IMG/VR virus record: IMGVR_UViG_3300037046_000294
Location: 1 to 45,728 of that record
DNA: 45,728 nucleotides
Source of the DNA: a virus
Taxonomy: Duplodnaviria > Caudoviricetes
Reading direction: 5' to 3' (one strand)
A program made the position numbers and the translations under genes. The stretch's first letter is position 1, and each line of letters begins with the position of its first letter. The notes under the pieces are model-generated. The model saw only the letters and a program-made list of their open reading frames with translations. It was not told where the DNA came from and ran no database searches. Below are positions 12,432 through 27,086 of this stretch, in pieces.

Positions 12432-12480
12432 GATAACTGAGAATTATAAATTATAAATTAAAAATTAAAAATTCGAAGTT

Positions 12481-13023
12481 ATGTACACACCAGTAAGCGT
12501 TCCAAAAACGGGAAACAATCCCGGAAGACCCCAGGGTAAAGACCCGAATATCATTATTGTAAGAACCGATGATATTCTGAATTTCCCGACCCGCGATGCC
12601 AACGGCGTTCAAAGCGCTGTGGGGCAGAACCTCACCCTGAAACCCGGTGCCAATGCCATTGCCGTATATGCCACACCATCGACCATTAAACGTTTTGATG
12701 GTGTTGAAGGCGAACCTGATGGAAAAGGATGGATTCAGAACCTTGTTTTCGAACACCCCGGCGACGAGGTTGGTTTGCAGGAATGGATGGAAAACAATGT
12801 TAACATTAACCTGGTTGCATTGAGTTTCAGACGTGGTTTTACCAGCGTAAAACTTCACGGTACCATTGAAGAACCCATCCAGTTCAGCGTAGAAGAGCAG
12901 GATGACAAAGAGGCTTTGAAATCGACCATTACCCTGAAATCGGTAATGAGAGGACCAAAATCGATGTTGTACCTGGGCACACAACCCGCGCTTGATACCG
13001 ATTCGGGAGGATTAGGAGTTTAA
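12481..13023 (+). CDS. Structural protein, probable major tail tube
   Basis: Follows capsid gene, ends at strong terminator, beta-rich 180 aa; no other clear tube candidate near the tape measure gene. Confidence 0.55.
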   Translation: MYTPVSVPKTGNNPGRPQGKDPNIIIVRTDDILNFPTRDANGVQSAVGQNLTLKPGANAIAVYATPSTIKRFDGVEGEPDGKGWIQNLVFEHPGDEVGLQEWMENNVNINLVALSFRRGFTSVKLHGTIEEPIQFSVEEQDDKEALKSTITLKSVMRGPKSMLYLGTQPALDTDSGGLGV

Positions 13024-13044
13024 TACAAAACCAGATTATAATTG

Positions 13045-13080
13045 AAGCGCTATTCGTCGATCGACGGAGGCGCTTTTTTT
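13045..13080 (+). terminator. Rho-independent terminator
   Basis: AAGCGC...GCGCTT stem plus T-run. Confidence 0.75.
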
Positions 13081-13082
13081 AT

Positions 13083-13117
13083 GTCCTTCTGTTTGCAATT
13101 GCAACATCTTAATTTTC
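13083..13117 (+). promoter_or_regulatory. Phage late-promoter motif, copy 2
   Basis: GTCCTTC-N20-TAATTTTC. Confidence 0.75.
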
Positions 13118-13132
13118 AAAATAAAAAACATC

Positions 13133-14089
13133 ATGGAAATTTCATTAAAAAACACCAAGCCGGAAATACTGGCAGCATTGCAAAAAATTCAGGATGAGAA
13201 CCTGCAGCAGAAGGAAACTATACTGAGGTTGGAAAATGAAGCGGAACAAGCTTTAACAGATAAAAAACCATTGGGAATAACCGATGAAGAATTGTTCAAT
13301 ATCCAATCGCTGCTCCAGGAAAATGAGGAATTAAAATCGGGGAAAATATCAGTTGTTATTCCATACGTAAAAAAGTATGCACAGGGTAACGAACTGAAGC
13401 TGGCCGTTAGAGGTTGGGATACTCATTTCAGGGAAGAATTTAACCTGGTAATTGTTGGCGACCGTGAACCGTGGATGAATGACCGGCTGAATGTAATTGA
13501 ATGTGCAGTTGTTGGCCAGAACCCGCCAATAGATATTGCACACAAAATGATGCGGGTAATTGAATCGGACCTTGTTACAGAAAAATTTATATGGAGCAAT
13601 GATGACCAGTACCTGGTTTCGCCGGTAATGCTTGCCGACCTTGAATTTTTGAAATGCACCGGCAAACTGAATGAAAAGAACCTGGGAGGAACTTTATATC
13701 ACGAAAACAAACGGGCCACTTACAATGCATTAAAAAGCATGGGCGCCGGTACCTGGGATTTTTCTGTACACATGCCTTTTGTTTTCGAAAAGCAAAAACT
13801 GAAGGAAATGATTGAAACCATGAATCTGACAGAAAAATCGATGCTGATTGCCACACTGTATTTTAATATATGGTTCCCGGGCTTTGTACCTTACAATGTT
13901 GAAACCCAAATTGCTTTGGAGAATGATAATCTGAAGGCAGGTGTTTACCGCCCAAACGCCGACCTCGACCGTTTACGTGCATTGATACCCCGTAAAAAGG
14001 TTGTGGGCAATTCGCAGGCAGGTTATTCTGAAAAGCTGATGAAAATAATTGCTGATATTCTTCCCAACAAATGCCGGTTCGAAAAATAA
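13133..14089 (+). CDS. GT-A fold / Stealth-like (phospho)glycosyltransferase with N-terminal coiled coil
   Basis: ISVVIPY, ELKLAVRG, VIVGDREPW and FIWSNDDQY parallel the Stealth CR2 pattern ELRYSLRS...P.W...F.Y.NDD. Confidence 0.7.
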   Translation: MEISLKNTKPEILAALQKIQDENLQQKETILRLENEAEQALTDKKPLGITDEELFNIQSLLQENEELKSGKISVVIPYVKKYAQGNELKLAVRGWDTHFREEFNLVIVGDREPWMNDRLNVIECAVVGQNPPIDIAHKMMRVIESDLVTEKFIWSNDDQYLVSPVMLADLEFLKCTGKLNEKNLGGTLYHENKRATYNALKSMGAGTWDFSVHMPFVFEKQKLKEMIETMNLTEKSMLIATLYFNIWFPGFVPYNVETQIALENDNLKAGVYRPNADLDRLRALIPRKKVVGNSQAGYSEKLMKIIADILPNKCRFEK

Positions 14090-14856
14090 CAGCCAAAGCC
14101 GACCGGGTTAAGGTGGTAAACTGGATACGTGCCGGGGCAAAGCTAAAGGAAGGGATTTCCCTGTATGCTGGTTTACGCGGTGACAAGCAACTGATTGCGC
14201 GGTTAAAACAAAACCCTGTAAAATACTACGATGCCATGATTGCTGATTTTTGCGCGATGATGGGAATGAGCAGGGAAAAGTTTAAAGTTCAAAGTTTAAA
14301 GTTTAAAGATGAAAAAATCAGTAACAAAACACCTGAAGCCGGAAATCAATCTGGAGAAAACAGAAAGGTTGAAAAAAACAATAACCGATCCTTCAGAAAA
14401 CAATGGCCATTCTTATCACGACCGGAATGTCCAACGGAGCTTAAGGCGTTAGCAGCCGACAAAATAACAGCCTGGGAAAATTATACAGCGGCGCACAAAC
14501 GTCTGTTTGATTGCTCCAGCATTGATGAATGTTACCAGACTGCTTTTGAACTGGTTGAGAATTACAAGGAAAACCGGCTGATTCACCAGGAGTTTGAATA
14601 TTACATGAAGCATGGCGCTGTTTTGGGCAAACACCCGGTTTTTAACCAGTATAAAAAGTTTGAACATCTGCGTGGTTTGAATGTGATTGACCTGGTAAAA
14701 CTTCACGAAATTACCTTGCCTCACCGTATCTGGAGAATCGAAAGCGTAATAAAACAGGGCAACAAACCCCATTTACTTGGCGAAAGGCAACAGCGGTTGA
14801 ATGAAGTGAGAGCAGAACTGGCCGAAGTAAAACGGTTGCTGGGTATCAATGGGTAA
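14071..14856 (+). CDS. Hypothetical helical protein in packaging operon
   Basis: Overlaps both neighbours; FRKQWPFL...CPTELKALAADKIT. Confidence 0.75.
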   Translation: MPVRKITAKADRVKVVNWIRAGAKLKEGISLYAGLRGDKQLIARLKQNPVKYYDAMIADFCAMMGMSREKFKVQSLKFKDEKISNKTPEAGNQSGENRKVEKNNNRSFRKQWPFLSRPECPTELKALAADKITAWENYTAAHKRLFDCSSIDECYQTAFELVENYKENRLIHQEFEYYMKHGAVLGKHPVFNQYKKFEHLRGLNVIDLVKLHEITLPHRIWRIESVIKQGNKPHLLGERQQRLNEVRAELAEVKRLLGING

Positions 14857-15451
14857 ATTTTTCGATATAAACGACCTGAAGCCTAAGCCATTTATTGATG
14901 GTGATGAAAAAGGATTGAAGTTCAGAGATGAAAACTCAAAATCAATCCGGATAAAGTTTGATGAAATACACGAAAGGAAAGTGGCCACCATCAAGATGCT
15001 GACAGGCCATCTTCCGGAAGAAAACGAAGTGATATTTATGCAAACCACAAATAGTTTTAATGCATTCACCTTTATTGTTTACCTGCTGAAACATGCCGGA
15101 AGGATTGAGCAACTTCTGATAAAAACATACTCGATAAACACTCGCATACTCGACAGTTTATCATCGAAGATAAGGAGCAATGAAATAGGCGATATCGCCC
15201 TTTACATTGCGGAAAGTATTAAGTACAGGATGCCCAGGGTAAAGGACCAGCTCGAGATGATGGTAAAAGAATTTCCCGATTTTCAGGTTGAATATGCCTG
15301 GACACATCAGAAAGTGATTTGCGCCCGGGTAGGAACCGACCACTATGTTGTTGAAGGATCGGGAAATTTCTCTGAGAACAGCGCTGAAGAGCAGTACATT
15401 TTTATGAAATCGAAACGGATATATGAGTTCAGATCTGGATATACTAAGTGA
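14849..15451 (+). CDS. Phospholipase-D-family (single HKD-like) nuclease-like protein
   Basis: TYS, HQKV and EGSGNFSEN...EQY motifs. Confidence 0.78.
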   Translation: MGKFFDINDLKPKPFIDGDEKGLKFRDENSKSIRIKFDEIHERKVATIKMLTGHLPEENEVIFMQTTNSFNAFTFIVYLLKHAGRIEQLLIKTYSINTRILDSLSSKIRSNEIGDIALYIAESIKYRMPRVKDQLEMMVKEFPDFQVEYAWTHQKVICARVGTDHYVVEGSGNFSENSAEEQYIFMKSKRIYEFRSGYTK

Positions 15452-15767
15452 ATGGCCCGACTGGTTCCCGCTGGATAAAGTTCAGGAACTTGAGGATATT
15501 GCAGCCATAGGTTACACACCCGATAAGGTTGCAATGTATTTTGATGTTAAGGTGGATGATTTTATGCATGAATTCAACCGGCCCGACAGCAGGATAAGAT
15601 ATCATTACAACCGCGGAGTACTTGTTAACGAAGCACAGGAAGCTATTGCCACACAGCAGGCAGCAAACGGCGGCAATGCAACACAGGCACAGCGACTTGA
15701 CCGGAAGCGGTTCCAGGTGATGTTTCAGGAAATGAAAGAAAGGATAATTTATGGCAAAGAAGTTTGA
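15423..15767 (+). CDS. HTH protein, terminase small subunit candidate
   Basis: LEDIAAIGYTPDKVAMYFDV HTH; AANGGNATQA motif; upstream of large terminase. Confidence 0.6.
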   Translation: MSSDLDILSEWPDWFPLDKVQELEDIAAIGYTPDKVAMYFDVKVDDFMHEFNRPDSRIRYHYNRGVLVNEAQEAIATQQAANGGNATQAQRLDRKRFQVMFQEMKERIIYGKEV

Positions 15768-16371
15768 AGTAAGCCGTTATCACGAAATTGCAGAGTACAT
15801 TGAAAAGGGAAGCCTATCGAAACTTACTCCGGAAGAGATTGAATACCTCGATATACTTTCAAAAATGAACACCATGCGCCGCAGGTATGGTTTGAATCAA
15901 ACCATTTCATTTTTTACTCAACCACCATTCAATATCAGTTTATACCGTGCCAAACAGATGTTTGAAGAGTCGATAAACCTTTTCTATTCAGATGAGATTC
16001 TTGATAAACAGGCAGCCCGCAACCTGAAGGCTGAACAGTTTGAACAGGCCGCGCAGCTCGCTCTTGAAGCTGCACAAAGTGTTAAGGACCTTGAAATATA
16101 CCGCGCCCTGTTATGGGACAGTTACAAAGCCCGGCAGTTAGACCAGCCAGACCCGTTACATATTCCGGAAGAATTATATAAACGTCCGATTAAAATTTAT
16201 ACCCTAAATCCTGTTCAGGCCAAATTACCTGCCATCGACCGCAACGAACTGGCTAAAGAAATAGATGCCATGGACGAAACTGCTTCGAACAAACGGCGAT
16301 GGAAGCAGGAAGCAATGATTGATGATATTGATTTTATAGAGATGATAAATGACCAAGCCGACGAAGATTGA
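15751..16371 (+). CDS. Hypothetical protein, second small-terminase candidate
   Basis: Helical; overlaps large terminase start. Confidence 0.6.
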   Translation: MAKKFEVSRYHEIAEYIEKGSLSKLTPEEIEYLDILSKMNTMRRRYGLNQTISFFTQPPFNISLYRAKQMFEESINLFYSDEILDKQAARNLKAEQFEQAAQLALEAAQSVKDLEIYRALLWDSYKARQLDQPDPLHIPEELYKRPIKIYTLNPVQAKLPAIDRNELAKEIDAMDETASNKRRWKQEAMIDDIDFIEMINDQADED

Positions 16372-18052
16372 CCTCGACCGTAACGACGTTGAAGTACGTT
16401 ACATGAACTGGCTTGCACAGCTGAGCGGTATTGGAATGTTTGCATCGCTGTTTTTTGTTGGTGGCCGTGGCAGTACCAAAACAACTGCTTTTTTGGCCGA
16501 ACGCCTGCAGGAAATGGTTTACGATATGCCGGGAGCACCGGTTGCTTTGGTTGCCGATACTTATGCCAACCTTCAGAAAAACGTTTTGCCTACACTTCAG
16601 GAAGGTTTACGTTTGTTGGGTTGGGAAGAGGAAATTCATTACCGTATAGAGAAACCACCGTTCGACCATTGGAAAGAGAAGCCGGTAAATATTATCTCCA
16701 GCTACAAACACACCATTGTATTTTTCAATGGTTTTAACCTTACACTTATTTCGCTCGACCGTCCATCGAGCGCCGCGGGAAAAAGTTATGTGGCCATTAT
16801 TGGTGATGAAGTGAAATTCTTCCGGGAAGATAAAATTGCCAAACTAACAAAAGCCGTTCGCGGATATAAGGTAAGGTTTGGTAATTCACCATTTTACCGC
16901 TCGCAGACATTCACTACCGACATGCCCAATCCAAACCTGATAGGTGAACATGACTGGATACTGAAGCATCGCAAAAGGATGGACCCGAAAGAAATTGTCA
17001 GGGTTTTGAAAGTTGGTTTTGTGCTGAATGAAATCCGGAAAGAATATGTTTTGGCAAAAGACTCCGGAGATCGGAAAGAAATTGCCAATGTTCAAAGAAA
17101 GCTCGACAGATGGGAGCAGCGTTGGCGCAAAGTGAGACAACACACTGTTTTTTTCTGGGTGGCCAGCTCATTCATTAATTCCGATATCCTGGGAGTTGAA
17201 TTTTTTAGTGAGGAGTTTGCAGCCGGGTTGGAAGATGTTGCTCAGGCAATACTTTCACTGAAACCGAATTTAACTGCAGGTAACCGATTCTACACGAAAC
17301 TTACCGAAAAGCATTTCTATCAAGATGGTAACGATTCGTATTTCAGTGAAGCTTTTGGCATCCGGGATAAAGAAGATTGTCGTATCCTGGCTAAACTAAA
17401 TAAAGCTAAGGCCATCGATATAGGTATGGACTTTGGCAATATGTTATCAATGGTTATTGCCCAACCTGGAGCTAAACGTGAATACAATTGTTTGAAGGAG
17501 CTTTATACATTACCCCCTAACTCCATCAGGGAGATAGCAGACCAGTTCCTTGAGTACTTCAGACACATGGAAGAGAAGACAGTTAACCTGTATTATGACA
17601 GGGCTGGAAACAACTACCAGAAGACAGGGCAGGACTTAGCCACACAAATAAAGAAAGCAATTGAGAAGGACCGTAAGGGTAAACGTACTGGATGGAAAGT
17701 ATTACTTCGTTCCATCGGGCAGGGCAACATACATTCAAACACTGAATACAACTTCATGATTGACCTGCTGTCTGAGGCTAATCCATTGCTGCCTAAAGTA
17801 CGAATCGACCAGTTTAATTGTCGCTGTTTAAAAGCATCGATAGAGAAAGCACCAACCAAGATAGTCAATAGAAACAACCGTAAGCTGGTTGTAAAAGATA
17901 AGCGTAGTGAGGGTCTTCCAGTTCATAAATTACCTACCGAATCAACTAACTTTTCAGATGCATTTAAATACCTGATGTGTAGAAGAGATTGGCTCAAATT
18001 ATCCAAGGGTACACGCAAGCAAAGTGCTGGTGATGTATCAACCGTTGGTTAG
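16349..18052 (+). CDS. Terminase large subunit
   Basis: Walker A GGRGSTKT, Walker B IIGDE, nuclease motifs IGMDFG, YYDRAG, SDAFKY. Confidence 0.92.
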   Translation: MTKPTKIDLDRNDVEVRYMNWLAQLSGIGMFASLFFVGGRGSTKTTAFLAERLQEMVYDMPGAPVALVADTYANLQKNVLPTLQEGLRLLGWEEEIHYRIEKPPFDHWKEKPVNIISSYKHTIVFFNGFNLTLISLDRPSSAAGKSYVAIIGDEVKFFREDKIAKLTKAVRGYKVRFGNSPFYRSQTFTTDMPNPNLIGEHDWILKHRKRMDPKEIVRVLKVGFVLNEIRKEYVLAKDSGDRKEIANVQRKLDRWEQRWRKVRQHTVFFWVASSFINSDILGVEFFSEEFAAGLEDVAQAILSLKPNLTAGNRFYTKLTEKHFYQDGNDSYFSEAFGIRDKEDCRILAKLNKAKAIDIGMDFGNMLSMVIAQPGAKREYNCLKELYTLPPNSIREIADQFLEYFRHMEEKTVNLYYDRAGNNYQKTGQDLATQIKKAIEKDRKGKRTGWKVLLRSIGQGNIHSNTEYNFMIDLLSEANPLLPKVRIDQFNCRCLKASIEKAPTKIVNRNNRKLVVKDKRSEGLPVHKLPTESTNFSDAFKYLMCRRDWLKLSKGTRKQSAGDVSTVG

Positions 18053-18076
18053 ATTATCAAATCAAAAGTTATCCTT

Positions 18077-18482
18077 ATGACTTAAAAAGTGGTGGGAATA
18101 CCATTTTAAGTCATTTGTTGCGGCTGGCATGGCTTAACATAATGAGCAACAGGCCGTTTGTCATATATCCTTTGAAAGCGATTCATGCAAAGGCAAACAC
18201 GAAGGGGGGCGGGCTCGGAGTCAATCGTTACATAAACCATTTTTGAATATTTTCAAAATGGTTTATTGACTGATTTGTTGATTTTTACTTCACATAATCT
18301 TTATAAAAAGGGTAATTTTTTGTCCTTATGTTTTGAGGAGTTATCCGAAATTAGATTTTTATCTGTATTGCGGCGCCACTTTTTTCTTGCAAGAAAAAAG
18401 TGGACAAAAAAGAAGCACGCACGGGTAGGCTTAACGCGAAAAATCTTGCTACCACGGCGATTTTTCGCTGACCTACCCGTGC
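18077..18482. repeat. Cluster of inverted repeats downstream of terminase
   Basis: Hairpins at 18077-18114 and 18232-18265; perfect 28-bp palindrome 18376-18403; nested hairpin 18419-18482. Confidence 0.85.
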
Positions 18483-18753
18483 TCAAAGAAACTAAGATGC
18501 AATCCCTAAATCCCATGCCGATCATGGAAAATCAGAACGGAAAAGCTTTGGATATTTTTTTGCGAAATTCCGGTTTTTAAACTTCCTCGCTTTGGCAGTA
18601 CTGTAATCCTCCCGGCCGGGTTCTGATGCACTCCAACGGATGTACTTCTATTCGGGATGAATATTTCCTGATACTTTCAAATTTTCGGTTATTTGGCTGA
18701 ACCCACTTTCCCGATATTTTTCATGTGGCCAGTTTTCATATAATTTTTTTGAC

Positions 18754-18920
18754 TTAATATCTGCTAAGGTGATGGCACAACCGCTGCGCTTTCAGGGTAC
18801 GCTTTGCCATACAAGGATTTTCCCGGGTGCCTCTTTCGTGTACACGTTCACACTCATTCAGCCTTCCAGTTCCTCCTTGCTATGCCCTGAATTGTGCCAT
18901 CTGATACCTGCACATATTAA
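18754..18920. promoter_or_regulatory. Fold-back leader type B, copy 1 (candidate ssDNA promoter)
   Basis: Pairs TTAATAT/ATATTAA, GATGGCACAA/TTGTGCCATC, TTCAGGG/CCCTGAA, CAAGGA/TCCTTG; core shared with 19971-20112. Confidence 0.65.
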
Positions 18921-18938
18921 CTTTTAAAAATTATTAAA

Positions 18939-19217
18939 ATGAAAACTTACAAGAAAAATTACATCGGAAAAGGAACTCAGGTACCTAACATGACAATCGC
19001 AAAATGTACTGTGAAAGTGTCGGAAATGATGAAATTCATCCACAAATACGAAGGTGAAGAGTACATCACGTTTGAAGTTGCAAAAATGAAACAGCCCGAC
19101 AAATTTAACAGGAGTTATACGCTTTACTGCACAACAATCGAGGAAGTTGAAGAAGAAAAACCGGCTCCAAAGAAACGCAAATCAAAGAAAGCTGAAAACG
19201 CTGACATTCCATTCTGA
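18939..19217 (+). CDS. Small putative single-stranded DNA-binding protein
   Basis: Beta-rich core and SSB-type C-terminal tail ...NADIPF. Confidence 0.6.
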   Translation: MKTYKKNYIGKGTQVPNMTIAKCTVKVSEMMKFIHKYEGEEYITFEVAKMKQPDKFNRSYTLYCTTIEEVEEEKPAPKKRKSKKAENADIPF

Positions 19218-19225
19218 AGAAATTT

Positions 19226-19256
19226 TCCCTGCTTCGGCAGGGATTTTTTTTGGTCG
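19226..19256 (+). terminator. Terminator plus GGTCG module-end motif
   Basis: TCCCTGC-TTCG-GCAGGGA, T8, GGTCG. Confidence 0.85.
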
Positions 19257-19260
19257 TACA

Positions 19261-19481
19261 TCTCAGAAAGACTATCCACTCCACTTAAATACCGGCAAAG
19301 GTATTAATCGCCGCCCGGAACAGTCAAGGGTATATAAACACCCTTCCTGTTTCCAGTGGTCATCCTGAGCGTAGTCGAAGGGCGCCCTTGCCCTAATCCG
19401 CCCGGCTCAATGGTGGTACGCCAATATTTAACCGGCGTGCCTGATGCCATAAAAAGTCTGTGTAGGCAGCAGCAAAACATT
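19261..19481. promoter_or_regulatory. Fold-back leader type A, copy 1 (candidate ssDNA promoter)
   Basis: Repeat of 20321-20522 and 22997-23160; minus-strand TTG-N21-TACCTTTG at 19327..19296. Confidence 0.75.
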
Positions 19482-19673
19482 ATGTCTGATTCAAAATATG
19501 GAAGATTTCGCTGCATCCATTGCGGCAGTAGGTTTAACCTAAACAACGAAGAAAACGAAGCTTACGAAAACGGCTTCTTTATGATTGACCCCGATTGCTG
19601 TGATGATTGTTTTGATAACCTGGAACATGCTCCGGATTATCCTGAATTCTCTGATGCCGACCCTGGCCTTTAA
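19482..19673 (+). CDS. Small acidic zinc-finger protein (63 aa)
   Basis: Start placed after repeated leader; CIHC...CCDDC; strongly acidic C-terminal half. Confidence 0.75.
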   Translation: MSDSKYGRFRCIHCGSRFNLNNEENEAYENGFFMIDPDCCDDCFDNLEHAPDYPEFSDADPGL

Positions 19674-19684
19674 AACTCTGCAGT

Positions 19685-19867
19685 ATGGAAAAGATTATCA
19701 AAATACAGGAGTTTTATCGCCAAAGTGGTAAATACGACAAGCGGATGAACATTGTGCCAAAACTCACACTCAGCGGAAACTGGCTGTCCGATGCTGGTTT
19801 CAAACCTTCCAAAATGGTTAAGGTCGAATGCCGTAACAATCAACTCATTGTAACCTCAATCGAGTAA
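19685..19867 (+). CDS. symE: SymE-family (type I toxin-like, AbrB fold) protein
   Basis: VPKLTLSGNWLSDAGF...VKVECRNNQLIVT signature. Confidence 0.85.
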   Translation: MEKIIKIQEFYRQSGKYDKRMNIVPKLTLSGNWLSDAGFKPSKMVKVECRNNQLIVTSIE

Positions 19868-19873
19868 TAAAGA

Positions 19874-19906
19874 ATGCCCTGCTCCGGTAGGGTATTTTTT
19901 TGGTCG
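19874..19906 (+). terminator. Terminator plus GGTCG module-end motif
   Basis: ATGCCCTGC/GTAGGGTAT stem, T-run, GGTCG. Confidence 0.85.
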
Positions 19907-19970
19907 TTAAACTTCACACCCCAAAACACGTTTTTCCCTGCCATTTTCTCCAGTGCTTTCACCCTGTTTA

Positions 19971-20112
19971 TTTTAAATGTGTGTGCGAAGAAACAGCCTC
20001 AATTCATAATGCACGCTGCCATTCAAGGATTTTCCCGGCATAAAAATTTATTCCAGTTCCTCCTTGCATGTTCTGACTTTCTGCTGTGATGGCAATGCAC
20101 ATCATTTTAAAA
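19971..20112. promoter_or_regulatory. Fold-back leader type B, copy 2
   Basis: GCCATnCAAGGATTTTCCCGG and TTCCAGTTCCTCCTTGC shared with copy 1; outer pairs TTTTAAA/TTTAAAA and TGTGC/GCACA. Confidence 0.6.
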
Positions 20113-20122
20113 TTAAAACATT

Positions 20123-20284
20123 ATGAAATCAAAATCTTACAAAAACAGCAGTGAAGAAAAAAACAACCTTTGGGATGCATTCGTCGATTATCTTGAAAAC
20201 ACCTACTTCCCGGGAGCCAGTGAATTACTCGATACAAAAACAATCGCTTTCGAGTATGAGTCTTTCAAAAAGTGTTATGCATAG
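20123..20284 (+). CDS. Small hypothetical protein (53 aa), missed by ORF track
   Basis: MKSKSYKNSSEEKNNLWDAFVDYLENTYFPGASELLDTKTIAFEYESFKKCYA between leader and terminator. Confidence 0.75.
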   Translation: MKSKSYKNSSEEKNNLWDAFVDYLENTYFPGASELLDTKTIAFEYESFKKCYA

Positions 20285-20308
20285 GGCTTCGGCCCTTTTT
20301 TTTGGTCG
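20283..20308 (+). terminator. Terminator plus GGTCG module-end motif
   Basis: AGGGC-TTCG-GCCCT, T-run, GGTCG. Confidence 0.85.
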
Positions 20309-20320
20309 GTTTTCCCCAGA

Positions 20321-20522
20321 TCTCAGAAAGATCCTCACTCCACTTAATCACGGCAAATTTATTAATCGCCATCCGGAACAGGCAAGGGTAATACAAGCTC
20401 CCTTGCCTGTTTTCTTTTGTGGATCCGCCCTTGCCCTAATCCGCATGGCTCAATGTGGTATGCCGAAATTAACCGGCGTGCCTGATGCCATAATAAGTCT
20501 GTGTAGGCAGCAGCAAAATAAT
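20321..20522. promoter_or_regulatory. Fold-back leader type A, copy 2 (candidate ssDNA promoter)
   Basis: Minus-strand TTG-N21-TAAATTTG at 20385..20354; inner 11-bp stem ACAGGCAAGGG/CCCTTGCCTGT. Confidence 0.75.
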
Positions 20523-21434
20523 ATGGATAAATTCGATATCTACGAAATGGTTACTAAACTCATTACCGACCGCCTCGAAGCTGGTGTGGTACCGTGGCAC
20601 ATGCCATGGAAAACGGCAGGAGCAATGCCACGTAACCTGGTGTCAAAGAAAACTTACCGCGGTTTCAACTTCTGGTACCTGCTCAGCATGGGTTTCGAGA
20701 GGCCGTTTTTCCTCACTTTTAACCAGGTGCAGGAACTGGGCGCTACGGTCCGGAAAGGGTCAAAAGCGTTCCAGGTGGTTTTCTGGAAAATGGTCGAATC
20801 CCGCGAAGACCCCACAAAGAAGGTTCCTTACCTGCGTTACTATCGTGTTTTTCATGTTGACGATGTGGAAGGAATCGACCCAAAGAAAATCCCATCGAAC
20901 AACCAACACGATCAGGATTTCGACCCCATTGGAACCTGCGATCGGCTGGTGGAAGAATGGAAGGATTCACCCTACATTTCGCACAATGCCGAGTATGCCT
21001 GCTATGTGCCATCTCTCGACACGGTGAAAATCCCAAATCCACGGAGGTTTTTCAAGGCCGAACAGTACTACTCCACGCTGTATCACGAGCTGGTTCACGC
21101 AACAGGCCATGCACGCAGATTAAACCGGCACAGCAAATTCCCAAACCATCACTTTGGCAGCAACGACTATTCGCAAGAGGAGCTGGTTGCCGAAATGGGA
21201 GCTGCTTACCTCTGTGGTATTTCCGGAATCGAAAACGAAACCATCGACAACTCAGCCGCCTACATACAAAGCTGGCTGCAGAAACTCAAAAACGACAAAA
21301 AGTTTGTACTCCAGGCTGCCAGTTATGCCCAGTTGGCTACCGACTTTATCCTGGGAATTACCCCGCACGAAACTTCCGAAACGGTTGTGCAGACGGAGGA
21401 AAACCCACCTGTTGTTGAATCCTTTGAATTCTGA
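20523..21434 (+). CDS. ardC: ArdC-family antirestriction protein (ssDNA-binding domain plus zincin-like domain), 303 aa
   Basis: LEAGVVPWHMPW, YRGFN, FLTFNQ, VRKGSK, YYSTLYHELVHATGH and YSQEELVAEMGAA motifs; start corrected from 20151. Confidence 0.92.
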   Translation: MDKFDIYEMVTKLITDRLEAGVVPWHMPWKTAGAMPRNLVSKKTYRGFNFWYLLSMGFERPFFLTFNQVQELGATVRKGSKAFQVVFWKMVESREDPTKKVPYLRYYRVFHVDDVEGIDPKKIPSNNQHDQDFDPIGTCDRLVEEWKDSPYISHNAEYACYVPSLDTVKIPNPRRFFKAEQYYSTLYHELVHATGHARRLNRHSKFPNHHFGSNDYSQEELVAEMGAAYLCGISGIENETIDNSAAYIQSWLQKLKNDKKFVLQAASYAQLATDFILGITPHETSETVVQTEENPPVVESFEF

Positions 21435-21437
21435 GCT

Positions 21438-22163
21438 ATGAAAACACAACCACAGAAATTCGAAAAACTGATGGAAAAGCTGACGCGCCGATACGGTGTG
21501 TCAGCCGTTTTTTCCGATTTCCTAACTTTGCTTATATGTGCTTTCTCACACGGCCAGCGCGAAGAGGAATACCTGAACATTATCCGCCGTTACGAAAAGC
21601 CCGAAGCTTATACATTTTCTGAAGCCCTGGGAGCCCTCACCATCGAAATGACCGGCGACGGAACCGGAATGGTTGACGTACTGGGAACCTACTTCGAAGA
21701 ACACATTTCGCACGGCCACAACGGACAGTTCTTCACACCGCAACACCTATGCGACATGATGGCCCGCCTGATGAACCCCGTCAACCCGCTCGAACGCATT
21801 GCCGACCCTGCCTGTGGAAGCGGGCGAATGTTAATGGCAATGGCAAAGCTCAACAGGTATGCCCGGTTCTATGGTGCCGATAACGATGTAAACTGTGCGA
21901 AAATGACAGTGGTAAACATGACACTAAACTGCATGTACGGCGAAGTAGCCTGGATGAACACCCTCACCAACCAGTATTACTCAGGCTGGGTAATCGAACC
22001 AACCATCCACGGTGTACCACGCGTAAGCCAGATATCCGAAAAACAAAGCTACATCCACATGAAACTCCCGGAAAACAAAACAGATATTCCGAAAAACGAA
22101 ATACCAGTACTGGAAAACAAAACCAGGGAAATGCCTGCAAAGCAACTGTTATTTGAATTTTGA
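21438..22163 (+). CDS. Truncated N6-adenine methyltransferase (HsdM)-like protein
   Basis: GQFFTP and DPACGSGRML present; no NPP(Y/F) catalytic motif. Confidence 0.85.
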   Translation: MKTQPQKFEKLMEKLTRRYGVSAVFSDFLTLLICAFSHGQREEEYLNIIRRYEKPEAYTFSEALGALTIEMTGDGTGMVDVLGTYFEEHISHGHNGQFFTPQHLCDMMARLMNPVNPLERIADPACGSGRMLMAMAKLNRYARFYGADNDVNCAKMTVVNMTLNCMYGEVAWMNTLTNQYYSGWVIEPTIHGVPRVSQISEKQSYIHMKLPENKTDIPKNEIPVLENKTREMPAKQLLFEF

Positions 22164-22165
22164 AG

Positions 22166-22193
22166 AAAAAGGGCTTTTGCCCTTTTTTTGTCG
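22166..22193 (+). terminator. Terminator plus GTCG module-end motif
   Basis: AAAAAGGGC-TTTT-GCCCTTTTTTT then GTCG. Confidence 0.85.
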
Positions 22194-22254
22194 TTACTTT
22201 ACATAGCTTTATGCTGAATTATTTTTTTTAAAGAATTGTTTAATAAAAAGACAA

Positions 22255-22998
22255 ATGAAAAAGTGGACCATAATCGTAACTTTCGTTGTACTGATTTTCT
22301 CAGCGACATCGCAAAATATTAAAAATTTACCTGTTGACTGCTTAGATGGTATATTCTACACAAGAATTAAAACAGATTCATTAAGTAATGGTTATTCAAT
22401 TGGAACTTCGTTTCTTTTTTTCTATAATAAAAGAAATTATTTAGCAACAGCAAAACACGTAATTCTTACTAGTCAAAATAAAAACGATTCATTATATCTA
22501 GAAATTTTTCAAAGTGAAAAATGGAAAACGCTGAAACTTAAACCACTATATCACAAAAATGATTCAGTGGATGCAGTATTATTTATTCTGCCCGACACTA
22601 TACAACTAACAAATCACCATTTAAATCTACATTTTGAAGGATTTGGAAATGATGCCTATATATTAGGATTCCCTAATTTTATGATGATGGATGCGAGAAG
22701 TGTATATTCTGATGGTAGTACTTATCAATTACCTTTAATTAAAAAGGGTATTATTTCCGGAATTATTAAATTGGGTACTTTGAATTATACCTTACTTGAC
22801 ATCATAGGAAATAAAGGATTTTCCGGAGGACCAGCTTACTCTTACGATATCTATGGAAAAGAATGGGCAATTTTAGGACTAGTATCTATGCGATTGCCTA
22901 ATATACTAATTAAACAGGATTCTCAATATCCTGAAACAGGATTCATTGTTCTGACACAAGCTGCATATTTAAAAGAAATAATAATTTTAAATAATTAG
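22255..22998 (+). CDS. Secreted trypsin-like serine protease (AT-rich moron)
   Basis: Signal peptide; GTSF, TAKHV (His), DAVLF (Asp), GFSGGP (Ser). Confidence 0.85.
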   Translation: MKKWTIIVTFVVLIFSATSQNIKNLPVDCLDGIFYTRIKTDSLSNGYSIGTSFLFFYNKRNYLATAKHVILTSQNKNDSLYLEIFQSEKWKTLKLKPLYHKNDSVDAVLFILPDTIQLTNHHLNLHFEGFGNDAYILGFPNFMMMDARSVYSDGSTYQLPLIKKGIISGIIKLGTLNYTLLDIIGNKGFSGGPAYSYDIYGKEWAILGLVSMRLPNILIKQDSQYPETGFIVLTQAAYLKEIIILNN

Positions 22999-23221
22999 AA
23001 ATACCCCACTCCAGTTAAATAAAGGCAAAGATATTTGCGCCGTCCGGAACAGGCAAGGGTAATACAAGCGCCCTTGCCTGTTTTCGTTGGTGGGCGCGCC
23101 CTTGCCCTAATCCGCCCGGCTCAATGGTGTTATGGCCATTATTTAACCGGTGTGCCAGGCCAGTCCGAATGTGAAACGGGCGGATACCAAAATTAGTCTC
23201 CAGGGCAGGGGCAAAAATACT
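22997..23221. promoter_or_regulatory. Fold-back leader type A, copy 3 (candidate ssDNA promoter)
   Basis: Minus-strand TTG-N20-TATCTTTG at 23056..23026; outer pair TTAAATA/TATTTAA; inner 12-bp stem. Confidence 0.75.
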
Positions 23222-23581
23222 ATGACACAGTCAGCAGTTAAAACAAACGGACAGCCAACCGAACAAAAGGCTAAGATGGAAGTGGTTAAAGAAACCAAAG
23301 TTGAAAACGCAATCCTGAGTCTGGAGAAACGGATCCAGAAAGTGGAGGAACTGAACATTGTGATCGACAAGTGGCGGAAACTGAACGAAGCCCGCAAGAA
23401 CCTGAACGGGTTTAAGCTGGGAGCCGACGGTCTCAGTTCAACAGTTGTAATCAAAGATGTATCTGGGCAGGAGTTCAAAACCTCGCACAACATCGTAGTT
23501 GAAACTGTTCTGACAACCGTAAAGGAAGTGCTCGATGCAAAGATTCAGGAAGTTGAAGACCAAATCAACTTTATTGTTTAA
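23222..23581 (+). CDS. Hypothetical coiled-coil protein (119 aa)
   Basis: Start placed after repeated leader; followed by terminator. Confidence 0.78.
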   Translation: MTQSAVKTNGQPTEQKAKMEVVKETKVENAILSLEKRIQKVEELNIVIDKWRKLNEARKNLNGFKLGADGLSSTVVIKDVSGQEFKTSHNIVVETVLTTVKEVLDAKIQEVEDQINFIV

Positions 23582-23588
23582 AGAAAAT

Positions 23589-23622
23589 GGATCAGTCGGC
23601 AGGCTGATCCTTTTTTTGGTCG
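23589..23622 (+). terminator. Terminator plus GGTCG module-end motif
   Basis: GGATCAGTC/GGCTGATCC stem, T7, GGTCG. Confidence 0.85.
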
Positions 23623-23758
23623 TTTCCACTTCTTCAAATTTCCCCTCCTTTTCTTCTTTAAAAAGGAGGGGAGTGTGTTGGCTTGTGCAATGGATAGGGG
23701 TGGTTTATTTCATTCACGCATTATAGCTTTGTAGCATTGTTTTTTGTACCTTTCACCC

Positions 23759-23884
23759 ATGAGCTACAAAACCTTCCATCATAATTATAAATACGGTTGG
23801 ATAATTGCTTTGGTAATTATCATAATTAGTTTAATTTTATGGCTTGTTGAAACCATATTCAACGTAACTATTTTTAAACCTTAA
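23759..23884 (+). CDS. Small membrane peptide (41 aa), missed by ORF track
   Basis: MSYKTFHHNYKYGWIIALVIIIISLILWLVETIFNVTIFKP; preceded by -7-like TACCTTTC. Confidence 0.55.
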   Translation: MSYKTFHHNYKYGWIIALVIIIISLILWLVETIFNVTIFKP

Positions 23885-23896
23885 AATCAAACTATT

Positions 23897-24502
23897 ATGA
23901 AAAAATTTATTTTAGTAATCCTTGTCTTTATTCCATTAATTCATTTTGGCCAGGTCAAAATTGTACTCAACGATGGAACAATTATAAACACGAAAATCGA
24001 CGGATTCTATGGCGAGGATTTAGTTTTCACTAAAAAACTTCCGGATACCAACATCGACAGAGTTAACATTATGGATGTCGACTCAATTTCAGGAAGTATG
24101 CCAAATTCGCGGGTTAAAAGCATTTTAAAGAAAAACCCGGCAGTACATTTCTCAAGTAATCAGAATTTTACCGATGCAGTTTATTATGCTCCTTCTGCCA
24201 TTGCTTCCGGTGCAGCGAACAATACAAGTATAAATGGCCAATACACTGCCGGCGATTATATTCAGCGCGCCGGTACCCGTTATGTCACTGGCCTTGCCCT
24301 TGGTCTTGGCGGGGCCGTTGTTATGGCTGTTGGTGCTGATTCTCAGGAAGCAATTGTTGCCGGTAGTTTAATATCGCTAACAGGTGCAATTATTTCAATT
24401 ACTGGTCATTTTCAGTTAATAAAAGCTGGTAAAAAAATGAATTCCGATGCAGTTACACTTAGCCCGGCAACTCATGGTATTGGCATGGCAATTAATTTTT
24501 AA
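23897..24502 (+). CDS. Exported/membrane moron protein
   Basis: Signal peptide; two Gly-rich hydrophobic helices; ends GIGMAINF. Confidence 0.8.
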   Translation: MKKFILVILVFIPLIHFGQVKIVLNDGTIINTKIDGFYGEDLVFTKKLPDTNIDRVNIMDVDSISGSMPNSRVKSILKKNPAVHFSSNQNFTDAVYYAPSAIASGAANNTSINGQYTAGDYIQRAGTRYVTGLALGLGGAVVMAVGADSQEAIVAGSLISLTGAIISITGHFQLIKAGKKMNSDAVTLSPATHGIGMAINF

Positions 24503-24521
24503 ACCTTAAAAACCAAAAATT

Positions 24522-24830
24522 ATGAAAAGAAATCAAATCCTTGGCAAACTTATTTTTGATTATCGAAAATTTTTCACAAATCAGGAAGTTGATGATTACA
24601 AAAAACAATTTTCTGATTTTATCAAAGCGAATGAAAGCTTGAATGATGAAGCATTTTATGAAAAATTTAAAAGCGAATTTTCATTAGTGCCAATGTTTAA
24701 CAGCTCACTTGACAGGCATTATCTTTCAAAAATTGAATCTGCTGTTAATACCATTAAAATTATTGCAATTATTTATCTGGTGGCTTCAATCATAGGCGCA
24801 ATTATTATTGCTTCTCAACTTACGCCATAA
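24522..24830 (+). CDS. Small membrane protein with C-terminal TM helix
   Basis: IKIIAIIYLVASIIGAIII. Confidence 0.75.
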   Translation: MKRNQILGKLIFDYRKFFTNQEVDDYKKQFSDFIKANESLNDEAFYEKFKSEFSLVPMFNSSLDRHYLSKIESAVNTIKIIAIIYLVASIIGAIIIASQLTP

Positions 24831-24853
24831 TTAGAAAATGTAATTTATTCATC

Positions 24854-24881
24854 AAGCCAGTTTTTAAAAGCTGGCTTTTTT
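24854..24881 (+). terminator. Rho-independent terminator
   Basis: AAGCCAGTTTT/AAAAGCTGGCTT plus T-run. Confidence 0.8.
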
Positions 24882-24893
24882 AATTTTACCCTA

Positions 24894-25082
24894 TTGCACA
24901 TCTCAATCACATTCTCTACCTTTGTAATGCTTACACAATTACAATAGGTTTAGAAATTCGCTTTCTAAGAGTTTTTTTAAACAACATACTGAGTCGTCGG
25001 GATCATTCATTTTCGGGTTTCGTACCTGTTCGTGATTGTGTAAGCACCTGGCGGCTCTTTATTTTTTAATGCTTACACAATC
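24894..25082 (+). promoter_or_regulatory. Consensus sigma-A promoter and structured leader with alternative pairing
   Basis: TTG-N20-TACCTTTG; TAATGCTTACACAAT twice (24925, 25067) and its complement ATTGTGTAAGCA once (25035). Confidence 0.75.
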
Positions 25083-25307
25083 ATGAGTAAAAAAACAAAG
25101 GTAATTTACCAAATCGAGTCAGAAACGCTTGAGCAAACCGTTCGCGTTATTTTCGAAGTATTGGGCAACACAGGCATGGAACCCGATAGTATTGTCCTGC
25201 ACGATGGCCGTGTTCTTCCCTGGAACAATTATGCCGCTCACCAGTTTGTCGGCGAAGGCCGCATTACCGAATCAGAATTCATCGAAATGTCACTCTCAGG
25301 CAATTAA
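25083..25307 (+). CDS. Hypothetical protein (74 aa) under structured-leader control
   Basis: ATG abuts second leader repeat. Confidence 0.7.
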   Translation: MSKKTKVIYQIESETLEQTVRVIFEVLGNTGMEPDSIVLHDGRVLPWNNYAAHQFVGEGRITESEFIEMSLSGN

Positions 25308-25404
25308 AAATTAGAAATTAAAAATTAAAGCGTCGCAACCCGGCGCTTTTTCTTTTTCCCACCATTCACGCATTCACGCATTCAAGCATTCAGCATTGCA
25401 AAGT

Positions 25405-25439
25405 GTCCTTTCATCACCCCGCCCCGCTTCCTACCTTTC
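25405..25439 (+). promoter_or_regulatory. Phage late-promoter motif, copy 3
   Basis: GTCCTTT-N20-TACCTTTC, 4 nt before ATG 25444. Confidence 0.78.
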
Positions 25440-25443
25440 CACC

Positions 25444-25716
25444 ATGAACGTATATGATGCCATCGATTCCATGCGCCAAATCAGTAACCGCGGCGGAAGT
25501 TTCTCGTTTTCGTTTATGAGCTATTCAGAAACCGCAGGATCCACCGATGGCGTTACCGACGTTGCATCAGCCCGCCTCAGGGCCCGGCCATCAAAAGAGC
25601 AAAACCGCAATTTCGAAATAATGGAAGCATATACCAACCTCGATACAGGCGAAGCCCGCCAGTTTTACCAGCCATTGCTAATGATTTTTAACGGACAAAA
25701 AATTGAGTTGACATGA
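25444..25716 (+). CDS. Small pre-portal protein (90 aa)
   Basis: Start corrected to ATG after promoter; ATGA coupled to portal. Confidence 0.75.
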   Translation: MNVYDAIDSMRQISNRGGSFSFSFMSYSETAGSTDGVTDVASARLRARPSKEQNRNFEIMEAYTNLDTGEARQFYQPLLMIFNGQKIELT

Positions 25717-27086
25717 GTAAAGAAGCAGATATCACCATTAAAGGAAAATCCGGAATAATGAACGTGCCCGATGTTGGCGTATTTTCGTTTTACACCGGAG
25801 CCGCCACTACCGACGATGTGTGGGATACAATCATACTTTCCGACAGTGGCGTGCAATGGGAAGCCGACCCCGACCTGGTAGCAGGTAAACACATTGTACC
25901 CTACGGCGCCAACAACAACCTGCCAATTGTGGTGCGCGACCTCATGGAAGCCAACAACCTGGCTCCCGGAATTCTCGAACGCGAAATGGGCCTGCTTCAT
26001 GGTCAGGGTCCGCAGCTTTATATTGACTTGGTAAAAGAGGGCGATATCACCCGCACATGGACATACGACCAGGAGATTTGGGACTGGCTGAAATCGTGGA
26101 ATTACCGCCGCTTTCTCGACATGGCAACCGTTGAATACAAGTACCTGAAGGGAGTATTCGTGAAACGGTTCCTCCGCCGTGGTGTTCGTATTGGCCGCAA
26201 ACCCGAGTTTGTATTGGAAGTTTGCCCCGGTACCGATGCCCGCCTGGCATGGGTTGATACCCGCCGGCTGGAAGATGTGCCGTTTATTTACACCGGCGAT
26301 TTCGAAAACGGATGCCGCCGAACGGGGATCCGCGCATGGCCGGTTTGGGACCGTTACCAGCCTTTTGAGCAATCGTCGTGTATGAGCTACCATAACTCCT
26401 ACAGTTTTGCACACAACTTTTACTCAATCCCCGGGTTCTGGGGATCCCGCAAATGGATTGCACGCTCCAGCGACGTTCCCGACATTCTGAAATACCTTTC
26501 AGATAACGGCCTTGTGCTTTCTTACCACATCCACAGCCCCGGAGCTTACTGGAAAGAAAAACGCGAAAAGCTGGAGGAACGATTCCCAAGTAAAACCGAT
26601 ACCGAAATCGATGCCAAACTCGAAGAGCTGAAGCTCGAAACCTTCCGCAAAATTTCGGGAGTACTGGCCGGGAAAAAGAACGTTGGCAAATTCATTGAAA
26701 CGGTTGATTTCTGGGACGAGGAAGCCGGTGCAATGGTAGCCTGGAAAGTAGAACCCATCGAGCAAAAGGTAAAAGATTTTATCGATGCACAGTTGGCCAT
26801 TTCCGACAAAGCCGATGCAGCAACCACTTCAGGAATAGGTCTGCACCCAGCCCTTTCAAACATGATGATGAACGGCAAATCAGCAGCCGGTTCAGAGATG
26901 CTTTACGCGCTCAAGCTTTACCTGGCTTCCGATACCACCATTCCTGAAGAGGTAATTTTTGAACCCATCAACCAGTGCATCGAAGCTATGTGGCCCGGCA
27001 AAAAAGCCCGCCTTGGTTTCTACCACAAAATTGTAATGAAAGAAGAAAATGTTTCACCGTCCGAACGGACTACAACAAACGTGTAA
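25713..27086 (+). CDS. Portal protein
   Basis: PYGANNNLP, FYSIPGFWGS, IGLHPAL and GSEML motifs; size and position. Confidence 0.85.
   Translation: MSKEADITIKGKSGIMNVPDVGVFSFYTGAATTDDVWDTIILSDSGVQWEADPDLVAGKHIVPYGANNNLPIVVRDLMEANNLAPGILEREMGLLHGQGPQLYIDLVKEGDITRTWTYDQEIWDWLKSWNYRRFLDMATVEYKYLKGVFVKRFLRRGVRIGRKPEFVLEVCPGTDARLAWVDTRRLEDVPFIYTGDFENGCRRTGIRAWPVWDRYQPFEQSSCMSYHNSYSFAHNFYSIPGFWGSRKWIARSSDVPDILKYLSDNGLVLSYHIHSPGAYWKEKREKLEERFPSKTDTEIDAKLEELKLETFRKISGVLAGKKNVGKFIETVDFWDEEAGAMVAWKVEPIEQKVKDFIDAQLAISDKADAATTSGIGLHPALSNMMMNGKSAAGSEMLYALKLYLASDTTIPEEVIFEPINQCIEAMWPGKKARLGFYHKIVMKEENVSPSERTTTNV

Follow-up and report, generated by a model that had tools for sequence, protein, structure and literature searches.

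The phage genome analyzed here, IMG/VR record IMGVR_UViG_3300037046_000294, carries between its large terminase gene (terL) and its portal gene an array of five modules (positions 18754–23622), each with a long fold-back leader. These are likely establishment modules of the type found in integrative and conjugative elements (ICEs), equipped with likely single-stranded DNA (ssDNA) promoters and situated at the cohesive end that is likely to be ejected first. The window, meaning the whole stretch of 45,728 bases that was analyzed, is the entire record, and protein family scans identified it as a temperate siphophage with head protease, terL, tape measure, amidase and integrase. An original prediction, made from the DNA letters alone, had described five modules between terminase and portal with leader types in the order B, A, B, A, A; this layout was seen as claimed. 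It had also proposed that the minus strand is exposed as ssDNA when the phage enters or is induced. The Frpo-type leaders, the sharing of modules with ICEs and the recurrence of the island in relatives, all described below, give this proposal partial support, and the route to such a state is considered thereafter.

Fold-back leaders as putative single-strand promoters

Bacteroidota promoters have a TTG element at −33 with a characteristic spacing to the −7 box. The consensus of this −7 box is TAnnTTTG (PMC9723704). On the minus strand of the window, TTG-N19–22-TAnnTTTG occurs three times, once in each A leader (with N20 or N21) and nowhere else, and the two plus-strand copies both lie outside the A leaders. 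These reversed promoters consist of TTG at 19327 and TACCTTTG at 19303–19296 in leader A1 (19277–19481, minus strand; fold-back at 19277–19441, then a conserved hairpin of the 5′ untranslated region), TTG at 20385 and TAAATTTG at 20361–20354 in the fold-back bubble of leader A2 (20336–20522, minus strand), and TTG at 23056 and TATCTTTG at 23033–23026 in leader A3 (23007–23221, minus strand). As a duplex, the A-leader promoter aims away from its gene. In the folded minus strand, the box-bearing arm and the gene-proximal arm are base-paired on both flanks of the box, and the box itself lies opposite a mismatched stretch; the partner arm spells TAnnTTTG in the coding sense in none of 11 A leaders. 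A folded A leader would thus resemble a Bacteroidota sigma-A promoter with a pre-opened −7 bubble aimed into the gene, as in promoters of the Frpo type.

As minus-strand DNA, the leaders gave fold z-scores of −6.3 (B1), −3.2 (A1), −4.2 (A2), −3.1 (A3) and only −1.2 (B2; 19964–20122, minus strand), the last having the weakest fold and a degenerate box. Across 11 related phage-borne A leaders, compared on a 40-pair stem derived from one of them, 82% of the cells are paired and 12 pairs have changes on both sides, a covariation that was reached in 0 of 500 shuffles and that exceeds all slid controls. In the register of the minus-strand fold, to which the count is anchored, the A stem has G.T in 29 cells and A.C in none. 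Leader B1 (18740–18938, minus strand) is a fold-back with a variant −7 box (CACCTTAG) on its non-template arm, and 5 of its 54 pairs show two-sided changes among five positional orthologues.

Of 35 phage A leaders, 24 have the box in reverse and none has it forward. Motif hits outside phages that have cargo carry it reversed in 24 of 56 cases and forward in 3, and hits without cargo in 9 of 65 and 3, respectively; the reversed box was found in 5 of 60 random windows and 6 of 105 shuffled sequences used as controls. B leaders have a variant box, one base off, that is reversed in 24/32 and forward in 0/32, with an unclear −33 element. No forward promoter was found on the coding strand of the 35 phage A leaders or the 32 B leaders; a scan for Escherichia coli sigma-70 promoters is uninformative for a Bacteroidota host. 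No Rfam family matched the leaders at gathering score, and leader A2 searched against 72,556 plasmids returned one 23-nt hit at chance level, with no sequence homology to Frpo/ssi. In one RNA run, which is uninformative on expression, no listed piece lay over the five leaders save for part of A3 and the coiled-coil gene behind it. The reversed boxes, the covarying stem and the lack of a forward promoter agree with the minus-strand fold-back leaders of Frpo type that had been predicted, and we consider it very likely from these sequence patterns that the leaders are ssDNA promoters.

A conserved element of the 5′ untranslated region (GATGCC...AGTC...GGCAG) also stands just before the start codon at three places (19443–19481, 20484–20522 and 23180–23221). 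It was matched in 36 viral and 128 genome stretches, the genome set including chance hits, and may aid translation or RNA stability.

A conserved site after terL and its link to the leaders

About 520 bp upstream of the array lies a conserved oriented site (18161–18218, plus strand) with a TCATATATCC box, a central near-palindrome and a GC-rich core of 11 nt (18208–18218). It follows a family-wide motif (a TCATAT(A/T)TCC box, a central palindrome and a GC-rich core) found 110–170 bp past terL. The site score was at least 20 in 123 of 181 terL/portal intervals, compared with a background of −1 to 11 in 4-kb stretches, one of which reached 19.7. Among 39 loci ending within 3 kb past terL, four (L007, L013, L014 and L027) stop at the base before the core, the bases beyond the contig end being inferred from relatives for L013 and L027, and a fifth (L002) stops 7 nt short. 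On the island side, the first base of L061 is the one next to the core, and the same is probable for L072; contig starts on this side were not counted systematically, and most contigs run through the site. The break of another contig, X6, near the site (18198/18204) is a weak hint only. The record of the Duneviridae phage Ingeline begins and ends within its inverted core, and the ends of that genome were recorded as not determined (PMC8776804). We regard the site with good confidence as a packaging end. It is probably a cohesive-end site (cos) with 3′ overhangs, because end repair of such overhangs would leave the 11-nt core missing.

Between the site and the array there is a perfect 28-nt palindrome with a long hairpin (18376–18482, assigned to neither strand), whose z-score is about −6 on both strands; similar hairpins were seen by eye between site and array in relatives. 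The non-coding stretch that follows (18490–18740) has no strong fold (z about 0.5) and is conserved with locus L046 and with the satellite-like element described below; it is possibly another cis element. In two loci (L020 and L031) a long tract of 7-nt tandem repeats runs from the terL stop codon ahead of the site.

The leaders and their genes mostly keep a set relation to this site. Of 59 intervals that hold a site together with cargo, 54 have the cargo downstream and in the orientation of the site, 4 have it upstream and 1 has it on both sides. The site is in view for 62 of the 103 distinct fold-back leader copies (35 site sequences); all 62 are co-oriented with it and 59 lie downstream, at a median distance of 1.9 kb and a maximum of 13.5 kb. 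Relative to the structural genes, the site of locus L517 and its island with B leaders have flipped together; L498 also has its island inverted, but the contig does not extend to the site. Since the strand of the leaders tracks the site even against the direction of the late genes, the folding strand appears to be set by the site and not by late-gene direction. Conventional islands also move with it. Site and island are both inverted in the phages laban6-1 and 6H, and in L294, L295, L357 and L360 an inverted site stands 4–6 kb past the portal gene with a conventional operon of coiled-coil and ArdC-N genes right behind it, some of these operons also having RadC. Five further loci (L012, L231, L243, L244 and L253) likewise have an inverted packaging-like site 4–6 kb downstream of portal.

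The island is not confined to the window phage and recurs after terL in relatives with terL identities of 22–99%. In a set of 43 terL loci, phages with terL identities as low as 39% have islands with coiled-coil, ArdC-N, RadC-JAB and SymE genes and genes for proteins of 47–57 aa behind terL, and leader scans placed A and B leaders in the same position in phages whose terL is only 22–24% identical. The same hotspot holds other leading-region cargo (PcfK, PcfJ and DUF4942) in L044 (9029–14054), and DUF932 in two pieces in phage 6H (L055, 3373–4720).

Genes of the array and their counterparts in conjugative elements

All genes and terminators of the array are on the plus strand, and each module closes with a terminator. 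The three A leaders have repeats D1–D4/D8/D13 in common and the two B leaders share D14. After the terminator hairpin comes TTTTT(G)GTCG, at 19247, 19897, 20299, 22185 and 23613, and these are the only plus-strand copies in the window. GGTCG or GTCG is directly 3′ of every terminator T-run, relatives have similar tails ending in TCG, and such tails are a possible crossover point for the shuffling of modules.

Module 1 encodes a beta-rich protein of 92 aa (18939–19217) and ends with terminator 1 and TTTTTGGTCG (19226–19256). Its acidic D[ILF]PF tail is conserved, with PF invariant in nine of nine sequences, and resembles the C-terminal tail of SSB. No OB fold was matched; the structure model (pLDDT 71) had no Foldseek hit at E ≤ 0.001 and a best VIA Z of 3.4, and its Atlas neighbours are unnamed. 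The predicted likeness to SSB thus holds for the tail and found no match in the fold searches. In module 2, a 63-aa acidic, Cys-rich and zinc-finger-like protein (19482–19673), recognized from its sequence with a sub-threshold NCBIfam match only, precedes a SymE-family protein (19685–19867; Pfam PF08845, E 4e-10, above cut-off) and terminator 2 with TTTTTGGTCG (19877–19906, repeat D10). Module 3 holds a 53-aa protein (20123–20284) that recurs in phage and ICE islands, and terminator 3 with TTTTTGGTCG (20283–20308).

Module 4 encodes a 303-aa ArdC anti-restriction protein (20523–21434; Pfam ArdcN and MPTase-PolyVal both above cut-off, PHROG 7245), a short N6-adenine methyltransferase-like protein of 241 aa (21438–22163; Pfam N6_Mtase) and terminator 4 with TTTTTGTCG (22170–22193, repeat D20). 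SymE and ArdC were thus identified as predicted, and the partner of ArdC, which had been called a truncated HsdM-like protein, agrees with that call in its N6-methyltransferase match. The list of five units stood, with one gene missed inside the array: a trypsin-like gene of low GC content (22255–22998, 247 aa; Pfam Trypsin_2 below cut-off) with a hydrophobic N-terminus and without a fold-back leader, inserted between units 4 and 5. It had no match in the 43 terL loci and looks like a moron-type insert. Module 5 consists of a 119-aa coiled-coil protein (23222–23581), a hallmark of phage and ICE islands of this type for which Pfam and NCBIfam scans found no family and whose Atlas neighbours are unnamed, and terminator 5 with TTTTTGGTCG (23589–23622). 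Anti-restriction, methylase and toxin-antitoxin cargo, typical of conjugative leading regions, is thus present in the array and related islands.

The same leaders and cargo occur in two ICEs (L127 and L167), the only ones in which the geometry was readable, where they are aimed at a primase gene, an oriT-like inverted repeat, a relaxase and a coupling protein. Cargo in common with the phage islands includes the 92-aa and 53-aa proteins, RadC-JAB, the methylase and the coiled-coil protein. In leading regions, the genes point to oriT (PMC11541004). Because the same leaders and cargo are found in true ICEs, the modules appear to come from a pool common to conjugative elements, and the likeness to a leading region that had been claimed is upheld in this sense. 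Unlike L127 and L167, the window has no adjacent oriT with a cognate relaxase and type IV secretion system (T4SS) and with genes directed toward it. No oriT was located in the ICEs of genomes G049, G006, G052, G051 and G048. In another ICE type (L468, L469, L472 and L474), A-type leaders with ArdC, methylase and coiled-coil genes stand before the tra genes or after the relaxase gene; its oriT was not located.

A copy of the array, in pieces that are 84–93% identical, was also found in a Draconibacterium metagenome-assembled genome (L457/L458; G003:C45, approximately 12,000–26,100), behind an integrase gene, a VapE-like gene and a site-like motif with a score of 13, below cut-off. No phage-structural or tra gene was recognized among the open reading frames scanned, and a search for viral relatives of the VapE-like protein found none. 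This element is satellite-like and a candidate hijacker of the packaging of the phage family.

The window phage itself is, judging by its homologous terL and portal, gene order, integrase and tape measure, a Bacteroidota temperate phage related to the Duneviridae. Its large terminase (16349–18052, plus strand, 567 aa) has a weak Pfam Terminase_6N match and is 38–44% identical to its homologues in 6H, laban6-1, Ingeline and the Bacteroides phage BT-TP2, the BT-TP2 copy being annotated as terminase. The portal protein (25713–27086, plus strand) is 30–36% identical to the portals of these phages and 33–36% to the annotated portals of Ingeline and BT-TP2; both identifications go back to homologues so named by their depositors. 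The nearest leader matches are in Prolixibacteraceae and Bacteroidales genomes, and array DNA was matched in 151 of 335 Prolixibacteraceae genomes. Among 53 window proteins scanned, no relaxase or T4SS family was matched, as had been stated beforehand. Protein family scans of the window recognized no nuclease and no HUH Rep, and no nuclease or helicase could be assigned from the single-sequence model of a 935-aa early protein (pLDDT 32).

Proposed use of the array, alternatives and significance

In phage lambda the end that is packaged last is ejected first. By this logic, the terminase would load on the boxed (terL) side of the site, and the island end would be packaged last and enter first, with the minus strand ending 3′ there. 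Resection in the 5′→3′ direction, or unwinding, would then remove the plus strand over a few kb and keep the 3′ overhang; this is the weakest step, for which host activities of RecQ/RecJ or AddAB type or a phage or virion nuclease are candidate agents. RecQ and RecJ act at 3′ overhangs, and RecJ was matched in all five Prolixibacteraceae genomes tested, in four above cut-off, a result that discriminates little. Once the hairpins had folded, host RNA polymerase would express ArdC, the methylase and the small proteins. Because 5′→3′ resection would spare the folding strand along with its overhang, the second end could subsequently anneal and prime fill-in, upon which the promoters would switch off. 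Before circularization, exonucleases and RecBCD can attack injected cos ends (PMC12407980). That the leaders are used single-stranded at some point in the phage cycle is reasonably likely; the full model, in which the promoters are active from the resection or unwinding of the first-ejected end up to circularization and fill-in, is more tentative, with chances somewhat short of even.

Several observations weigh against this reading. The evidence comes from contigs, in which no ssDNA state, transcript or terminus was directly observed, and four contigs from cellular metagenomes (X7, X1, X8 and X10) bridge the site, as prophages or circles would, and give no support. The leader sequences are related, so that the counts given above are not independent events, and their conservation could be partly inherited from ICEs. 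A strand-neutral wobble count showed no excess in A leaders (132:105, against 508:384 in shuffles); the B leaders had a modest excess (176:101). Many family members have forward double-stranded DNA (dsDNA) promoters for similar cargo (for example L003 and L008) or no island at all. Three fold-back leaders of L370 lie 877–3303 bases upstream of the site and point to it, and a B-like leader of the G141 prophage is found about 8 kb upstream; end resection cannot reach either. Others are 10–13.5 kb downstream. The leaders of L370 and G141 and those at more than 10 kb would fit states in which the whole strand is exposed better, or may be misplaced passengers. Fold-back leaders upstream of a site and aimed at it were also seen in L390 and at 6150–6445 of L465, and end resection leaves them unexplained.

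One alternative holds that the modules were captured from ICEs and work without a real ssDNA phase, through torsional extrusion of the hairpins, read-through from upstream or leftward firing in dsDNA, in which last case a short or antisense RNA would be made and the fold-back would be inherited baggage. The occurrence of these leaders and their cargo in ICEs that also carry relaxase, coupling protein and tra genes, the matches to array DNA in the Prolixibacteraceae genomes, the forward promoters that drive similar cargo in relatives, and the reversed promoter itself, a perfect consensus that should work in dsDNA, are all in keeping with it. Read-through is difficult to reconcile with a terminator at the end of every module, however, and capture without use does not readily explain why the box is kept in phages at least as often as elsewhere (24/35 against 24/56), why compensatory changes occur among positional orthologues of phage leaders, or why all 62 leaders with a site in view are oriented with it, even against the late genes. 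We consider this alternative fairly unlikely.

The remaining alternatives retain a single-stranded phase and differ in its origin. Imported ssDNA passes a ComEC channel with its 3′ end first. The whole genome might cross the inner membrane in this way, the minus strand entering from the island end and the leaders both expressing the cargo and priming the complementary strand, which would account for the strand and the polarity as well as for leaders placed far from the site or upstream of it. Entry of RcGTA particles into the cytoplasm depends on ComEC/ComF (PMC12378983), and Frpo transcripts can prime complementary synthesis (10.64898/2026.01.09.698686). ComEC was matched in five of five host-family genomes, yet it is near-universal (10 of 14 control genomes), which makes its presence weak evidence; moreover, a single strand loses one cohesive end, so that circularization by cos annealing becomes hard to explain, and many relatives have ordinary promoters at the same end. 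This import is improbable, and we give a similarly low probability to displacement of the minus strand by replication of rolling-circle or unidirectional type once the phage has been induced or has infected a cell, with the leaders serving as replication-coupled promoters and as primers akin to a single-strand origin (sso). The site-linked strand and the place near the 3′ end of the displaced strand would suit an sso, and leaders on either side of the site are tolerated, but a role at entry is suggested by the ArdC and methylase cargo and by the conventional operon that moves with the site, contigs that end on either side of the core speak for a staggered double-strand cut rather than a nick, and an HUH Rep was not recognized in the window scans.

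Mobilization in trans, one of the routes first proposed, would make the island a true leading region of a prophage circle or chromosome moved as ssDNA by a co-resident ICE. The hosts carry many ICEs, and the leaders of L370 and L390 point to the site as they would to oriT. Its polarity is wrong, since genes that are directed away from the site, as in 59 of 62 cases, would enter last. The window also lacks the nic-like motif CATCTTGC of the ICEs L127 and L167, its minus-strand matches to YATCCTGY are in coding DNA at least 10 kb downstream or upstream, and the island of L039 is set apart from the portal operon by no more than a terminator and a promoter. This route is very improbable, and a nearby genome end is favored among those originally listed.

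The array combines features of several known systems. In T7 and T5, anti-defense regions are injected first and have dsDNA promoters; the array resembles them in its anti-restriction genes at the entering end. Phage N4 uses its own virion polymerase on short hairpin promoters, and filamentous phages have ssDNA virions with hairpin promoters; likewise, RNA polymerase would act here on a folded single strand. Morons and the PeSL cassettes of T4 are modules of promoter, gene and terminator that have shared flanks and are shuffled in a hotspot between head genes, and they differ from the array in their forward dsDNA promoters. The cultured phages 6H, laban6-1, Ingeline and BT-TP2 have the same gene order and site as the window, and laban6-1 has methylase, ArdC-N and SymE genes beside its site; unlike the window, these phages have a conventional island or none, and no fold-back leaders were seen in them. 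The closest resemblance is to Frpo/ssi (ssp) of the F and ColIb-P9 leading regions, where a long imperfect fold-back rebuilds a housekeeping promoter on the template strand and is repeated ahead of ArdC, methylase, toxin-antitoxin and SSB-type genes (PMC9849209, PMC11541004, PMC13478746). The phage leaders differ in having Bacteroidota −33/−7 elements in place of −35/−10, in the lack of a DNA match in the plasmid collection, and in residing in a tailed phage without oriT or relaxase, on a 3′-terminated strand with genes pointing away from the entry site. In conjugation, by contrast, the template strand enters 5′ first and the genes point toward oriT, and the islands of Prolixibacteraceae and Bacteroidales ICEs (L127, L167) aim at an oriT-like repeat whereas the phage island follows a packaging-like site.

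A full-text literature search, covering sources other than subscription journals and bioRxiv supplements, found no paper in which ssDNA promoters are described for tailed dsDNA phages or for Bacteroidota. The string "Bacteroid" does not occur in the main text or Frpo table of PMC11541004 or in the main text of PMC13478746, and the available portions of PMC9849209, 10.64898/2026.01.09.698686, PMC10367356, PMC7077304 and PMC12694917 report no termini for the family. In the papers searched, the firing of genes from a single strand has so far been described for conjugative plasmids only. What appears to be new here is the link of such leaders to a probable cos, their co-inversion with that site and the satellite-like copy.

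These results offer a candidate cos in a phage family without determined genome ends, together with a sequence rule for ssDNA promoters of Bacteroidota. The leaders may also serve as a marker for finding new anti-defense genes, several of the cargo families being without annotation. The most far-reaching reading, which we regard as quite unlikely, is that a widespread group of Bacteroidota tailed phages with dsDNA genomes, together with satellites exploiting their packaging site, enters the cytoplasm as a single strand, 3′ end first, with a true leading region, where ssDNA-only promoters derived from conjugative elements would express anti-defense genes and prime the second strand from the cohesive end. 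Promoters of this kind have so far been a device of conjugation, and their tie to the packaging end of a siphophage implies an overlooked single-stranded stage of entry. Restriction, CRISPR and end-sensing defenses would then first encounter a different kind of target.

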